A DNA stretch of 64,000 nt from a virus, in the IMG/VR virus record IMGVR_UViG_3300027749_000049, positions 32,001 to 96,000 of that record. The stretch is one strand, 5' to 3'. Positions 35,330 through 50,990 of this stretch are shown in pieces. The translations under genes were made by a program, and so were the position numbers. The notes under the pieces were generated by a model. That model was not told the origin of the DNA and searched no databases. It saw only the letters and a list, made by a program, of their open reading frames with translations. Numbering within the stretch: the stretch's first letter is position 1; each line of letters starts with the position of its first letter.

Positions 35330-35900
35330 AAGCAGACCCCAACCCGGGGGAGAATTTGCTCCAGGTAGCGGGTGACCTCCCAAATGAGCCCAGCAAACCG
35401 GCCCGGGCCCGGGGAGAATTTCAGAATAGCTCTTGGGCACATTGGTATTGTCGGTGAATCCTGGTCCGTGGAGAAACCGGAAAAAAGTAAAGTGCTGCGG
35501 CCGGCCTCCAGGAGTACTTTTTTTATGTCAGCAAGGTCACTCCTGGGGCACCTCCCGGAGTCACCCCGGGCTGCTATATTGTGAGCCTGGGGCAGCTCCG
35601 GTAGTGACCTCCAGGGCAGCCTCCAGGGCATCTCCTGGGCCGGGAGTAGTTCACTTTTTGCTGCTCCCGGGACAGCTAGCCCGGTGGCAGGCCAGGAGCC
35701 GGCTGGCCAGTTGCTAGCTCGGTACCGAGCATGGAGCCTGCTCCTAGCTAGCCAAACTCCGGCCGGGCTTAGGCCTGTCCAGACCTGGCCTGCGCTAGAG
35801 ACCAGCCGAGCTTAGCCTAACCTGGGCCGGAATCGGTTGTACTGTACCCCGCCGAAATCGGTTAGACCCCGCCGAAAGTTAGTTAAGCTTAACCTAACCT
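35330..35900. other. GC-rich non-coding island with palindromes and short direct repeats at a strand switch
   Basis: Abrupt GC rise; GCTCGGTACCGAGC, GTTAAGCTTAAC, 2x CCCCGCCGAAA, 2x GGGGAGAATTT, 2x CCTCCAGGGCA. Confidence 0.75.
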
Positions 35901-36009
35901 GCTCTAGAGAAAAAAGCATTTAACTCCTTTAGCCTATGCATTTTTTTGGATCTAAACTTTGTGGTTGGATAGAGTATAAGATTTCTGTAAAATATAATTT
36001 AGGAAGAAG

Positions 36010-36321
36010 ATGTTATTACAAACCTTGGTTGCAGAATTTCTAAGAATTCTCGAGAAGTCTGGCCGGGACTGGCACCAAATAGCATGGGCAATTCGCGGTT
36101 TGGAATCTGAAGTCCGGGATTCAAGTCTCACGGCGGCGGATTGGTATCCGGAATTAGAAGAGTATTTAGGGAGCAGAGTTGTTGAAGCCTTGATCCTCGC
36201 AAGAGCCGAGGCAATAGACCGAGAAGAGTTTGAATGGGCGCATGAAATAACCCGCAGACTGGCAGAGTTAGGTTGGGAAAAATTTGAGGAAGAAGAATGT
36301 TACAGAGACCAAAGGATATAA
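36010..36321 (+). CDS. Hypothetical protein with UvrB/UvrC-like motif
   Basis: AEAIDREEFEWAHEI. Confidence 0.6.
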   Translation: MLLQTLVAEFLRILEKSGRDWHQIAWAIRGLESEVRDSSLTAADWYPELEEYLGSRVVEALILARAEAIDREEFEWAHEITRRLAELGWEKFEEEECYRDQRI

Positions 36322-36485
36322 TCGACCAGACTCTTGAGACCGCGCTAAAAAAACCAGGTCTAATTGACTGGAACTGGATCTTAGCAGATCTATTGGAGAA
36401 AAAGGTTGGGGTAGAAAAAAAGATTCTTTACCGCAGGGTTAAAGCCCTCCTAAAGTCTAGAAGAGAAGAACCTTGGTTATGGTAA
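36297..36485 (+). CDS. Hypothetical protein
   Basis: ORF in operon. Confidence 0.45.
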   Translation: MLQRPKDIIDQTLETALKKPGLIDWNWILADLLEKKVGVEKKILYRRVKALLKSRREEPWLW

Positions 36486-36521
36486 GATATACTTATACAG
36501 AAATATAAAATATAATACAAT

Positions 36522-36743
36522 ATGAAAAATAGAAAAGAACAGATTGTTCAGTTACTTGGAGCGCTCGCGATTGGATTTGCAGCCTCGGTAATAATGGCTT
36601 TTCCAGTTAAATGGCTCTGGAACTGGTTGATTCCAGAAATTTTTACAGGTGTTGCGCAGATTTCTGCACTGCAGGCTTGGGGTCTAGTATTCCTAATCCA
36701 ATTGTTGGTACCTAAATCCGGAAAAGACTTAACTAAGAAATAA
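36522..36743 (+). CDS. Small membrane protein
   Basis: WLWNWLIPEIF...ISALQAWGL with two TM segments. Confidence 0.7.
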   Translation: MKNRKEQIVQLLGALAIGFAASVIMAFPVKWLWNWLIPEIFTGVAQISALQAWGLVFLIQLLVPKSGKDLTKK

Positions 36744-36748
36744 TTGGT

Positions 36749-36979
36749 ATGGGAAAAGGCGGACGCAAAGGCGGAACAGAAGACAGGGTACAAGAAAAGA
36801 TTGACCGGACCCGAGGTCAAGACCGGGATTCAGATCCAGGATTTTGGCCCTATCTAAAAATGGTAGAAGACTGGGCTGGAAGACATAATTTTTCCTACAC
36901 CGAAGCCGAGGTCAAGCAGGCCTGGACAAGCGGCCAATGGGTAGAAGATTTTATTCTAGTTAAATGTAAACGTAGATAA
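36749..36979 (+). CDS. Hypothetical protein
   Basis: ORF in operon. Confidence 0.55.
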   Translation: MGKGGRKGGTEDRVQEKIDRTRGQDRDSDPGFWPYLKMVEDWAGRHNFSYTEAEVKQAWTSGQWVEDFILVKCKRR

Positions 36980-37155
36980 CTCTTAACCAAATCTTTTCTG
37001 AAAAGGTCCCTAACTATTTTTTAGTTGGGGACCTTTTTTCTTTAACGAGTTCCGCAAATTGTTAATAACTTTTTTCTAAAATAATTCACTAAAAATTTTT
37101 TAGTCTCAAATAGATTTGTTATATTTACTCTATCAACCAATCTAAAAAATCAACT

Positions 37156-49073: not shown

Positions 49074-49095
49074 TCCTTATATAATACACACTCTA

Positions 49096-49126
49096 AGAAG
49101 GGGTCCTCAACAGGGACCCCTTTTTT
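49096..49126 (+). terminator. Intrinsic terminator closing the early module
   Basis: AGGGGTCC-TCAACAG-GGACCCCTTTTTT. Confidence 0.8.
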
Positions 49127-49130
49127 GGGT

Positions 49131-49265
49131 TTAACCTTGACCTACATTGCGCTTAACATAGTACTTACTGTTCTTGCTTACTGATGTCTTCTTTTTAGAG
49201 TGGACACCAGGTCTGCGACGCTTGGCTTTGGCTACCCGATTGGTTGTGGTTGACTGTTTGGCCAT
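49131..49265 (-). CDS. Small highly basic protein (44 aa, not in ORF track)
   Basis: MAKQSTTTNRVAKAKRRRPGVHSKKKTSVSKNSKYYVKRNVGQG. Confidence 0.65.
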   Translation of the reverse strand: MAKQSTTTNRVAKAKRRRPGVHSKKKTSVSKNSKYYVKRNVGQG

Positions 49266-49397
49266 TAGTTAAATCTATATTTTTATACTATTTAATCCCA
49301 AAAACCGTGCAGTCCCGGCGAGGACCCTGGAATCGGCCCCAGGCCATGGGGATTTTCGTCACACAGTACTATCCTCGCCCCGAATATAAATAACCAT

Positions 49398-49799
49398 ATG
49401 AAAGAAGCTTCTACATCAGACATTAGTTTTGTCCGGTTCTGTATTGCAGAATTAGGGATCGAAACAAGTCCCAATATCAGGATAGGCGATGACCACCGTA
49501 AGGCGCAAGAGCACCGAGCTATGGGTTACTATAGTCCAGCAGATAACTTGATCTGGGTGTTACGCGGTAGTCGGGTACCTGCAGACTGGTATCGAACCCT
49601 AGCCCATGAATTGGTCCACTGGCGCCAGCGCGAGCTAGGCCAAGGTTTGGACGGTGCAGACGGTAGCGAAATCGAGAATGAAGCTAACTCTAAAGCAGCA
49701 GTACTCTTACGGGAATGGGGTAGAAGAGATGAATTAATTTATGTCTTACCTAATGAGGCGCAACCGGCTGACCCCCAAGTAGAGCCTGCGACCCCATAA
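49398..49799 (+). CDS. Zincin-like metallopeptidase
   Basis: RTLAHELVHWRQ...ENEAN; exact TATAAATA at 49385. Confidence 0.75.
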   Translation: MKEASTSDISFVRFCIAELGIETSPNIRIGDDHRKAQEHRAMGYYSPADNLIWVLRGSRVPADWYRTLAHELVHWRQRELGQGLDGADGSEIENEANSKAAVLLREWGRRDELIYVLPNEAQPADPQVEPATP

Positions 49800-50415
49800 T
49801 CAGGTAGCTTAAGTCTTCCTTTAACTCTGCCCTGTATTCTTCCTGATACAGGGTTTTTTGTATAACATGCAGTTCAACACCGTGCCAGACCAGGAATCTC
49901 TCTAGAATCTCAGCACCCGCAAACCTGGCCAGCCTGTCCGGGGTCTCAACTATAACCATGCTTATCTGCTTGCGTAACACTAAGTCAAAGATCTTGTCTA
50001 GCCCAGACCTGCCGACTAGGCTACCAGCCTTACCGACCTCCGCAATTACCTGGTCTACCCTGATCCCGGCCGCCGTGCAGTAGGCTAGCACCCGGTCCTG
50101 CTGAGCCTGCAGCCGGGTTCGGGATGAGACGCCGGCCGCGCCCTGGTCCGGAATTCCCGCCGCCCGGCAGTAGACTACGACTTCCCTAGACTGGGGTAGT
50201 TTACTCCCTAGTAGCTTCAAGAGGTCCTGCTTGTCGTAGTAGATCCGGCCGTTGATCTCGTTCTTCCAGTGTCTTAGGGTACCGGCTTTAACGTAGCGGT
50301 CTAGGGTCTTTAAGGAAATACCTAGGAATTCCGCGGCCCCCTTCTTGTACACGAGCTCGCCGGTTGGGAACTCGGTTAGGGGTCTAGAGTCTGGGGTCTG
50401 GGCTGGTTCCTGCAT
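49750..50415 (-). CDS. IS607-type serine recombinase (HTH plus resolvase domain) with an altered catalytic motif
   Basis: AAEFLGISLKTLDRY HTH; VVYCR...; VIAEVGKAG; VIVETPDRLARF; ELKEDL. Confidence 0.8.
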   Translation of the reverse strand: MQEPAQTPDSRPLTEFPTGELVYKKGAAEFLGISLKTLDRYVKAGTLRHWKNEINGRIYYDKQDLLKLLGSKLPQSREVVVYCRAAGIPDQGAAGVSSRTRLQAQQDRVLAYCTAAGIRVDQVIAEVGKAGSLVGRSGLDKIFDLVLRKQISMVIVETPDRLARFAGAEILERFLVWHGVELHVIQKTLYQEEYRAELKEDLSYLIMGSQALLGGQPVAPH

Positions 50416-50429
50416 GGGGTTATTTATCT

Positions 50430-50990
50430 ACTGCCCGGCCTGCCCGCTTGGACAGCCCCCGGCCCCGGGTCCAGCAGTGTCCATATACTTCTCGAGTCCG
50501 GGCCCCCTCTAGAGCCCGGGAGCCTGCTCGGGTCCGTGGAGGCCGCGGTCGCCGTACTCCCTAGTCCCCATGAATGCACAGCTTGTACCCTTTGGGCGGT
50601 GGCAAGCAGGGGTACTCCCTAGTCCCACGGGGCCGGGGTCAGGGCTGGGCTCGGCTGGCCTGGCAGGGGTACTCCCTAGTCCCGAGCCGGGCTGGCCTGG
50701 TTGGGTAGAGCCGGGCTGGCTGCAGGTACTCCCTAGTCCTGGGTAACCAGGACATGGGCCTGCCCTAGACTTGGCTAGTCTAGTAGTCAGGGTCTATAGG
50801 ATAGGGTTCTGAATAGGGTTGGGTATAGGGTTGGGTATACGGGTTATTTTTCTTTTTATGTATATAAGTAGACAGAGTCTTGCCTGGAGAGTTTCTTCTT
50901 AGATTAGTATCTTTACTTAGAGTAGTAGGGCGCGCCTCTAAGCTTTGGGACGCAGGCATACCCACGGCCAGGACCCGGACCGATTGGGTA
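50430..50990. repeat. GC-rich non-coding island with four 15-bp direct repeats at 57-58 bp period, hairpins and G-tracts
   Basis: GTACTCCCTAGTCC(C/T) at 50554, 50612, 50669 and 50726; CTAGAC..GTCTAG hairpin; ATAGGGTTGGGT tandem units at 50801-50845. Confidence 0.8.

Follow-up and report, generated by a model that had tools for sequence, protein, structure and literature searches.

A cassette-rich candidate early region with a one-stranded 9-mer and an IS607 TnpA-like gene in an uncultured freshwater jumbo phage

What kind of phage region gathers small genes of one orientation, a promoter type of its own, two sigma factor genes and a 9-mer (CTCCCTAGT) confined to one strand, and lies between two peaks of GC content? 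The question is raised by IMG/VR virus record IMGVR_UViG_3300027749_000049 (128,004 bp, here G000), bases 32001 to 96000 of which, a stretch of 64,000 nucleotides, form the window analysed here; all positions given are window positions unless another sequence is named. The record is classed as 'linear', is 46% complete by CheckV estimate and is densely coding under the standard code. In the initial annotation, the interval 35330-50990 was described as an early module driven by host RNA polymerase and reminiscent of the first-step-transfer segment of phage T5, being either the leading end or terminal repeat of a genome with signals for staged entry or, alternatively, a segment acted on by an adjacent serine recombinase. 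The interval is read here as a hyperplastic, fast-evolving early or regulatory region of an uncultured freshwater jumbo phage of ~270 kb, built of repeated promoter cassettes, a reading to which a probability of roughly 60% is assigned.

The layout of the region is conserved in a clade of phages of 250-271 kb. The main points of comparison are G001, a complete relative of ~270 kb, and L003, a close relative that is 88% identical on the first sigma factor and whose contig stops inside the IS607 TnpA-like gene described below. Sequencing runs were compared as Logan contigs, the form in which all 24 relevant runs exist, each contig carrying one flat mean depth. Four runs were compared; X1, which may be the source sample, X2 and X6 are DNA, and stretches lacking cover in X6 and X24 do not enter the evidence. 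No cultured relatives were found. The best match of the ATPase encoded in the region, at 30% identity, is from an uncultured 484-kb phage, and in this search for cultured relatives the TnpA-like protein matches only ordinary IS607-type transposases at no more than 35% identity.

Repeated promoter cassettes in a variable region

The box TTGTTAATAACTT occurs in nine exact copies, all on the plus strand between 37059 and 46153, and has no exact copy elsewhere in the 128 kb on either strand. Near-copies are located at 41306 (one mismatch, plus strand), 44654 (two mismatches, plus strand) and 46136 (two mismatches, minus strand), and with up to two mismatches allowed there are 25 matches in the window against 7.07 ± 2.5 expected. 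Cassettes were defined by repeat finding followed by alignment of 12 intergenic stretches. Each consists of a palindromic box GTTAATAAC, an A/T-rich stretch that sometimes contains a terminator hairpin, TTTTTTAGTGTCAAA, an extended −10 element (TGnTATATT) and an A/C-rich leader; the aligned order is AATTGTTAATAACTTT, 0 or 22-23 further A/T-rich bases, ATTTTTTAGTGTCAAA, about 7 nt, TTGTTATATTTG, the A/C-rich leader (AACCAATCTAAAAA...) and the ATG. TATATT is invariant across the 12 cassettes, which also have a T-run, a TG is found two bases 5′ of it in most, and the next ATG lies 22-42 nt past TATATT in 11 of the 12. The leaders have no Shine-Dalgarno sequence, and behind each cassette come one to four small genes, most of them orphans. 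The cassettes are as follows.

37059-37125, plus strand: cassette P1, with a box followed by an A/T-rich stretch, TTTTTTAGTCTCAAA and TGTTATATT; a terminator-like hairpin (37001-37037) lies 5′ of it
37705-37749, plus strand: cassette P2, short form, with a 9-mer site directly 5′ at 37691
38930-38974, plus strand: cassette P3, short form
40825-40889, plus strand: cassette P4, with a terminator hairpin between box and −10 element
41306-41371, plus strand: cassette P5, box with one mismatch
42046-42090, plus strand: cassette P6, short form, with a hairpin and a 9-mer site (42031) directly 5′
42555-42589, plus strand: cassette P7, without box, heading sigma factor 2
43537-43601, plus strand: cassette P8, with a terminator hairpin
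44654-44720, plus strand: cassette P9, with a doubled box (12-nt tandem)
45426-45491, plus strand: cassette P10, with box, terminator hairpin, and TGGTATATT then AATAAATA, which are the other two promoter-like classes
46033-46063, plus strand: cassette P11, without box, just past a strong terminator (45980-46009) and followed by ~90 nt free of ORFs
46153-46219, plus strand: cassette P12, the last, heading a WYL_2-domain gene

Terminator-like hairpins with T-runs lie at or before P1, P4, P8, P10 and P11, and in P4, P8 and P10 the terminator hairpin takes the place of the TGTCAA part; the remaining cassettes have no hairpin or a GC hairpin lacking a T-run. The ~90 nt between P11 and P12 (46064-46152) hold no open reading frame (ORF) and could be a small RNA gene, for which Rfam gave one sub-threshold match nearby, on the other strand. 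Where the initial annotation noted roughly ten host-type promoters, there are twelve copies of one cassette with an invariant TATATT, and a generic sigma-70 scan is not clearly enriched. A minus-strand reading of these promoters was dropped, as the invariant TATATT and the genes are both on the plus strand. A perfect sigma-70 consensus (TTGACA, 16 nt, TATAAT; 12/12) is present on the minus strand at 42546-42573, pointing leftward and antisense to the 42133-42552 gene, because the GTGTCAA of P7 complements TTGACAC; weaker versions of it are found in P6, P11 and P12.

Two further promoter-like classes occur across the record, one a terminator plus TGGTATAWT and the other (T/G/A)ATAAATAAC near start codons; the latter stands in front of the genes for the ATPase, the 133-aa protein and the TnpA-like protein. 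The make-up of the interval changes along its length: the cassettes end at 46219 and the stretch from 46.7 to 50.4 kb has this other upstream box, ATAAATAAC, giving a cassette-driven left part and a differently controlled right part. Outside the module, composite junctions that recur across the record, such as those at 52298, 54090, 65208 and 81155, consist of a terminator hairpin, TGGTATAWT and then, within ~10 nt, (T/G/A)ATAAATAAC, and look like the two further promoter classes stacked. The sequence TATATTTG, present in 7 of the 12 cassettes, resembles the −7 box of Bacteroidota and, with the leaders lacking Shine-Dalgarno sequences, may hint at the host.

The cassettes coincide with gene turnover. 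The alignment with L003 contains eight gaps, three of which end in or by cassettes: an insertion at 37039/37055 that adjoins the P1 box; 38548-38983, in which the 38565-38936 gene is replaced and whose right end is just past P3; and 45488-46137, which runs from P10 to just before the P12 box with loss of the 45514-45960 gene. The joint 45488→46078 occurs in each of the three DNA runs compared (in X6 its shorter side matches over 144 letters), and the 45514-45960 gene, absent from L003, also has no match in G001 or G005. Of 31 module genes compared with G001, 19 are matched and 12 have no counterpart; the left-hand shared genes are reordered, and from 44026 rightward the order is the same save for the missing 45514 gene. 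The interval is a variable, orphan-rich region in which differences between relatives end in cassettes. Contigs of run X1 additionally fuse cassette to cassette (43559→37057 and 46185→38958, at depths of 29.5 and 6.2), with 17-38 foreign letters in between, and probably derive from co-resident relatives with other gene orders.

The cassettes themselves are shared across the clade. L003 keeps eight boxes, island 1 (the left GC-rich border) and seven CTCCCTAGT sites, four of them as the full 12-mer; G001 and the distant L092, L096 and L098-L101 have, on the same strand, the cassette core (TTTTTT-nn-TGTCA/TCTCA, 7-9 nt, TATATT), which is retained in distant members that lost the box. Such long, nearly identical repeats would allow homologous recombination between cassettes to add, delete and reorder genes.

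The genes fit a regulatory region. There are 32 plus-strand ORFs of at least 40 aa between 36010 and 49799, where about 35 small co-oriented genes had been counted initially, and the two sigma factors noted then are confirmed by Pfam matches. The early or regulatory half of the initial proposal is reasonable, as co-oriented small genes, a promoter class of their own and sigma genes fit it; the early timing of the module and the form of polymerase that reads the cassettes are inferred. The genes referred to are listed below.

36010-36979, plus strand: first four small genes, 5′ of the first cassette; three of the four are kept in G001 (tblastn, 57-69% identity) and one is a PHROG 'membrane protein'
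39874-40824, plus strand: sigma-70-family factor 1, 316 aa (Pfam Sigma70_r2 1.2e-15, r4 3e-07, r1_2 6.4e-05)
42612-43340, plus strand: sigma-70-family factor 2, 242 aa (Pfam Sigma70_r2 1.3e-13, r3, r4_2, r1_2)
45514-45960, plus strand: 148-aa gene, present or absent between strains; the deletion spans P10 to P11
46769-47899, plus strand: RecA-fold ATPase (AAA_25; RadA/Sms-like; Pfam AAA_25 1.1e-06), with 9-mer sites at 46960 and 47716
47955-49073, plus strand: 372-aa conserved protein, DUF932-like by language-model features only, with a 9-mer site at 48497; 84% identity in G001
49398-49799, plus strand: 133-aa zincin-like protein (Pfam DUF6782 and MPTase-PolyVal, both sub-cut-off), with the box TATAAATAACC 5 nt before the ATG
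49750-50415, minus strand: IS607-TnpA-like protein (Pfam HTH_17 and Resolvase above cut-off), with a MerR-type helix-turn-helix (HTH) and a serine-recombinase fold

Both sigma genes contain sigma-70 regions 2 and 4. Sigma 1 passes the cut-offs for regions 2 and 4, matches RpoS/RpoD-like NCBIfam models under their equivalog cut-offs and has 185 relatives in IMG/VR. Sigma 2 passes for region 2 and for the Sigma70_ECF and r3 models, its r4_2 score being 24.0 against a cut-off of 25.7, and is the best-conserved regulator of the module (77% identity in G001, 75% in G005). Sigma 2 is headed by a cassette here, and sigma 1 is headed by one in a relative. The phage sigma factors would then direct transcription to promoter classes of later stages. 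The record encodes three genes with sigma-70 region 2, and G001 five; the third in the record lies outside the module, at G000 21741-22367, 10 kb before the window start.

Overall, 6 of 27 scanned proteins of the interval pass a curated Pfam cut-off, and 3 of 10 match PHROG families, the one named being 'membrane protein'. The ATPase has an NCBIfam RadA match (2.2e-13, under the cut-off) and 87% identity in G001. The 372-aa protein scores 0.97-0.98 by language model to Atlas clusters carrying DUF932; it has no Pfam or NCBIfam match, no Foldseek match at E ≤ 0.001 and no convincing fold match by VIA-align, where the best Z of 7.3 is in the noise range. The conserved right-hand quarter (46.7-50.4 kb), behind the ATAAATAAC box, encodes the ATPase, the DUF932-like and zincin-like proteins and the TnpA-like protein.

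A one-stranded 9-mer and a TnpA-like protein

The second repeated element of the region is the polar 9-mer. The 12-mer CTCCCTAGTCCC is present in 8 exact copies, and its core CTCCCTAGT in 12, all on the plus strand between 37691 and 50729, with none elsewhere in the 128-kb record. Both the box and the polar 12-mer had been noticed within the interval alone, and that confinement extends to the whole record, in which neither an exact box nor a 9-mer core occurs elsewhere. With up to one mismatch, ACTCCCTAGT has 13 matches, again all on the plus strand (37690-50737), against 2.64 ± 1.57 expected in the window.

37691, 38192, 42031, 42400, 46960 and 47716, plus strand: the first six of 12 CTCCCTAGT sites, which together span 37691-50737
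48497, 50204, 50557, 50615, 50672 and 50729, plus strand: the remaining six sites
50548-50740, plus strand: tandem array of four 57-58-bp units, each starting with GTACTCCCTAGTCC, with variable, GC-rich spacers

Confinement and polarity are conserved. Each of five near-complete relatives has 10-13 CTCCCTAGT copies on one strand within 8-11 kb and nowhere else, a reversed-word control giving 0-1. Four assemblies of 270-271 kb (CheckV 100%) have 10 copies each, on one strand within 8.2 kb and with none elsewhere, and a 253-kb relative has 13 within 11 kb. Among more distant sigma-bearing phages (79 loci, 1.46 Mb) a single copy was found. Of the 19 loci with a TnpA-like gene, 15 were scanned and have at least four copies each, in the same orientation as the small genes; where a locus extends into the upstream region, there are 2-5 tandem copies with a period of 57-58 bp, and arrays of that period are present in L090, L096, L085 and L098. 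The positions of the sites are syntenic across relatives.

The 9-mer is selected at the nucleotide level within genes. In the ATPase gene the codons TAC TCC CTA are identical in 11 of 11 orthologues and the following GTA in 10 of 11, and neighbouring invariant Arg, Leu, Gly and Glu residues vary synonymously. Only 10 of 170 invariant degenerate columns are written with a single codon, and three of those 10 are the consecutive TAC TCC CTA. Of 33 in-gene occurrences in credible genes, 32 are in the frame nnC TCC CTA GTn, at about eight distinct gene positions, the exception being 42400. In the TnpA-like gene, an invariant Leu-Gly-Ser is always written as the 9-mer complement. CTCCCTAGT is read here as a cis element acting at the DNA level, which selection preserves even within coding sequence. 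In one literature search for it, the matches listed all concern chromatin or nucleosomes and none of them phages.

It is unlikely that the 9-mer acts on RNA or on the transcribing polymerase, either as an ops- or nut-like pause or recruitment element of an antiterminator or as a cleavage site of a phage endoribonuclease. The ops and nut elements work at the level of RNA and polymerase in antiterminator recruitment. Every site is on the strand that is sense for the co-oriented genes, several are located just past stop codons, by hairpins or in the terminator stems of relatives (L096 9263, L098 8223), and many terminators of the module would need readthrough. However, 5 of the 12 sites (50204-50729) lie past a plus-strand terminator (49829-49854), antisense in the TnpA-like gene or in its upstream array, with no plus-strand promoter evident there, which favours a role at the DNA level over one at the RNA level. 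The fixed tandem period of 57-58 bp suggests a DNA-protein array, a NusG-like gene was not found in G000, G001 or G005 (the control being positive in 10 of 14 genomes), and RNA contigs cross the sites at 46960 and 48497 unbroken, a weak point.

A candidate for the protein that reads the 9-mer is encoded beside the tandem array. The serine recombinase gene of the initial annotation is confirmed as a homologue at 49750-50415 on the minus strand, and it sits inside the right-hand GC-rich island rather than beside it, with GATAAATAACC 5 nt before its ATG and an antisense 9-mer site within it at 50204. The NCBIfam IS607 transposase model gives 96.1 bits against a cut-off of 110, and the fold matches the IS607-like TnpA structures 3lhk, 3lhf and 6dgc with E of ~1e-6. 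There are 82 homologues at E ≤ 1e-5, and the 19 loci mentioned above are in IMG/VR. In 11 sequences examined gene by gene, the TnpA-like gene is at the same place, by the pair of ATPase and 372-aa genes. No tnpB lies beside it; it is flanked by a tRNA-like array and the 133-aa gene, and large ORFs are lacking there.

The nucleophile of a serine recombinase is missing from this family. In 17 members of 41-95% identity, Y82, R84 and D-R-L-x-R are invariant, and the position after Y-x-R-x is Ala in at least 90%; the motif reads Y-C-R-A-A and is followed by an insertion of 8-11 residues without a conserved serine. Two ordinary IS607-type transposases, whose genes each precede one for a second transposase, were aligned with the family, and the serine of their Y-x-R-V-S falls on this Ala. 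Many of the invariant residues of the family are in the HTH and wing. By sequence, the protein is probably dead as an enzyme, and the suggestion of a segment acted on by a serine recombinase fails as recombination, given the Ala at the aligned nucleophile position across the family. The idea of a protein acting on the segment survives in changed form, in that the TnpA-like protein may bind the polar 9-mer, and by analogy it is more likely to be a 9-mer DNA binder than a recombinase.

The analogy is with the IS607 family itself. There, TnpA attaches to several direct repeats of 9 bp immediately 5′ of its gene, spreads along the DNA and brings two DNAs together (PMC6188088). Since IS607-family TnpA binds 9-bp repeats, a domesticated protein that would still bind such repeats is the simplest reading of the gene and its upstream array; the TnpA-derived protein would most likely bind CTCCCTAGT and thereby mark or organise one region of the genome. 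Put forward tentatively is the further possibility that the nucleophile-less TnpA reads the co-oriented CTCCCTAGT array and folds, silences, insulates or anchors the region as a unit by coating and pairing DNA. If this were true, it would represent a new kind of organiser of a phage genome region, and possibly a physical basis of staged expression or entry.

GC-rich borders and alternative explanations

The interval is bordered by two non-coding arrays of high GC content.

35310-35900, no strand assigned: GC-rich island 1, a non-coding array of repeats that separates leftward genes from the rightward module
49950-50990, no strand assigned: GC-rich island 2, comprising the 5′ two-thirds of the TnpA-like gene, the tandem 9-mer array, G-quadruplex-type motifs and a TAGGGTT-type repeat

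In 200-nt windows the GC content is 0.575-0.655 over 35400-35799 and 0.53-0.665 over 50000-50799, the mean of the record being 0.361 (sd 0.059). The only segments above 0.6 in 128,004 bp are 35301-35951 (maximum 0.655) and 49451-50851 (maximum 0.71). The bracketing pair described initially is therefore real, these being the sole strong GC peaks of the record, and it is kept in G001, where all 10 motif copies and all 5 boxes lie between GC peaks of 0.64 and 0.675, the two highest in its 270 kb. Island 1 contains GGGGAGAATTT twice, CTCCNGGAG palindromes twice and CCCCGCCGAAA twice; its blocks are kept in L003 and G001, the CCCCGCCGAAA repeats being kept in G001, and no counterpart was recognised within the 12 kb examined in G005. 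At 35506-35560, the CTCCNGGAG palindromes (ACTCC...GGAGT in G001) and the polar 9-mer have similar left halves. In the whole window there are just two motifs of G-quadruplex type (four G3+ runs), both in island 2, at 50629-50649 and 50816-50843 on the plus strand. The islands are conserved non-coding repeat arrays at the borders of the region; what they do there is inferred.

Beyond the right border, at 51004-51611, lie four tRNA-like elements in an array with their 3′ ends in common. Rfam calls three of them, and ARAGORN calls one, a tRNA with anticodon TCA at 51165-51242; the record is yet open under the standard code. Over 33000-53000 Rfam gave tRNA matches only, plus two sub-threshold hits at chance level.

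Several observations weigh against the reading of a cassette-built, hyperplastic early region and against its proposed 9-mer-binding protein. Five of the eight gaps relative to L003 end away from cassettes, and a terminator-like hairpin is present in just 5 of the 12. The cassettes lack a canonical −35 element, and the generic sigma-70 scan gives 44 sites against 34.5 ± 5.3, which is not a significant enrichment; its best sites are on the opposite strand because GTGTCAA is the complement of TTGACAC. The cassettes could instead be of a middle class and be read by a phage sigma factor, because the sigma gene at 39874 sits behind the other promoter type here. On the RNA side, one metatranscriptome gave 26 short pieces, of which the 8 listed are 90-99% identical and report presence only. 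The tandem sites are 57-58 bp apart, compared with the helical phasing of 10-11 bp in IS1535, and covariation with the protein is unusable because CTCCCTAGT never varies. The higher X1 depth over 39.3-46.1 kb is also expected from a collapsed repeat.

The right border, with island 2 and the conserved block, might alternatively be a replication origin, in which the 9-mers would be iterons, the ATPase a helicase or its loader, and the G-rich plus strand a start prone to R-loops or G-quadruplexes. An array with a fixed period and variable spacers is present in all relatives that reach it, the G-quadruplex-type motifs are confined to this part of the 64-kb window, and the AAA_25/RadA-like ATPase and its conserved partner adjoin. 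This reading is nonetheless doubtful, as seven sites are spread over 11 kb within and between genes, which is unusual for iterons, no A/T-rich unwinding element or DnaA boxes were found, and Pfam, NCBIfam and fold scans of the module proteins identified no primase or initiator family. The cumulative skew of G001 tracks gene direction and has no turning point here.

It was also considered that a long direct terminal repeat with pre-early genes makes up the region or its inner 8 kb, the islands and the polar motif being signals for staged entry. The pre-early segment of T5 is terminally repeated and has an injection-stop region with repeats, palindromes and DnaA boxes, and the host-takeover module of SPO1 lies inside long terminal repeats; the small early genes, strong promoters and terminators of the interval resemble these modules. 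In X1, five perfect-match pieces covering 39337-46107 have depths of 33.6-46.9, compared with 25.9 for 33001-38183, 28 for 46211-51364 and 19.3 for 51335-52465, and a collapsed terminal repeat assembles as a circle, with which circular-looking assemblies are compatible. However, the depth of a contig is a flat mean summed over relatives, and 53 of the 105 matching X1 records are less than 99% identical; the deletion form (16.2) and the undeleted form (33.6) add up to about the depth of the nearby pieces 4 and 5 (46.4 and 46.9). Run X2 has a depth of 4.4-8.1 throughout with no step, and the changes in depth fall somewhere in 38.2-39.3 kb and at ~46.1-46.2 kb, not at the islands. The four 270-271-kb assemblies of one relative each open at a different, unrelated position, and the one 'DTR' among them is an assembly overlap of 127 bp. 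Contigs cross both islands unbroken, as they would with a collapsed repeat. Repeats and palindromes do occur in both islands, but the DnaA boxes of a T5-like injection-stop region do not bear out, with 16 matches against 19.35 expected and none in either island. The genome-end half of the initial proposal is unsupported, and a terminal repeat at this place is considered improbable.

Weakest is the proposal that the serine-recombinase homologue is active and excises or inverts DNA between co-oriented 9-mer sites, which is very improbable: direct repeats of one site do flank groups of genes, a recombinase-fold gene adjoins and run contigs hold several joints between distant places, but the family has Ala for the aligned serine with no other nearby serine conserved, 9-mer sites coincide with no end of the joints listed (45488→46078, the one with good support, is located in cassettes), and the syntenic sites show no sign of turnover.

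The T4 proteins MotA (PF09158) and AsiA (PF09010) had no match, and since the control was likewise without a match this does not count as an absence; the T4-type terminase C domain (PF17289) had no match in G000 or G001.

Comparison with known systems

The reading of the interval as a hyperplastic region with repeated promoters has a counterpart in the PeSL cassettes of T4-type phages. These consist of a strong early promoter, an A/T-rich upstream part and a G/C-stemmed terminator, flank orphan genes in hyperplastic regions, and are proposed as recombination points for gene shuffling (PMC2839356, PMC4122927). The resemblance includes a repeated intergenic candidate promoter with an A/T-rich upstream part, in some copies with a terminator-like hairpin, between small orphan genes of a variable region, and close-relative differences that end in cassettes. 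The cassettes here differ in having an extended −10 and a clade-specific TGTCAA element in place of consensus −35 and −10 elements, an added palindromic 9-bp box and a hairpin in 5 of 12 only; they are confined to one 9-kb stretch. The PeSL idea would in this way extend from T4-type coliphages and vibriophages to uncultured freshwater jumbo phages with another promoter grammar, and a candidate early promoter of the clade is defined, as is needed for reading the timing of hundreds of orphan genes.

The first-step-transfer segment of T5 and the host-takeover module of SPO1 share with the interval a compact set of small genes, early or presumed early, strong promoters and terminators, which here are candidates, and repeat-rich borders. 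The differences are that DnaA boxes are not enriched here and that the assemblies of a relative are cut at four different places. The interval offers a concrete place to seek the mechanism that separates early from late regions in large phages.

The TnpA-like protein resembles that of an IS607 transposon in its N-terminal MerR-type HTH followed by a serine-recombinase fold, and in the several 9-bp direct repeats just upstream of its gene, which are like the left-end motifs that TnpA coats and uses for pairing two DNAs (PMC6188088). Compared with the transposon, the nucleophile serine is lost, there is no adjoining tnpB, and the gene is a fixed, syntenic member of a phage clade and not a mobile unit; the sites have a spacing of 57-58 bp and are, besides, dispersed over 13 kb. 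Short DNA words selected at synonymous sites, on one strand and in one 10-kb region of a 270-kb genome, are rare, and with a domesticated serine transposase the polar 9-mer would make a directly testable protein-site system.

A more distant likeness is to RacA of Bacillus subtilis, a MerR-type HTH protein that binds ~25 GC-rich ram sites near the origin. The two have in common the same broad type of HTH and a cluster of specific sites marking one region of a chromosome. The RacA model matches the TnpA-like HTH weakly, far below the cut-off, and homology does not extend past the HTH. In this phage each site is asymmetric and all point strictly one way, and an anchoring role would be pure analogy. 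The interval matches a known kind, the PeSL-type hyperplastic region, and what is new in it is the combination of a polar 9-mer array, a domesticated IS607 TnpA and two GC-rich border arrays.

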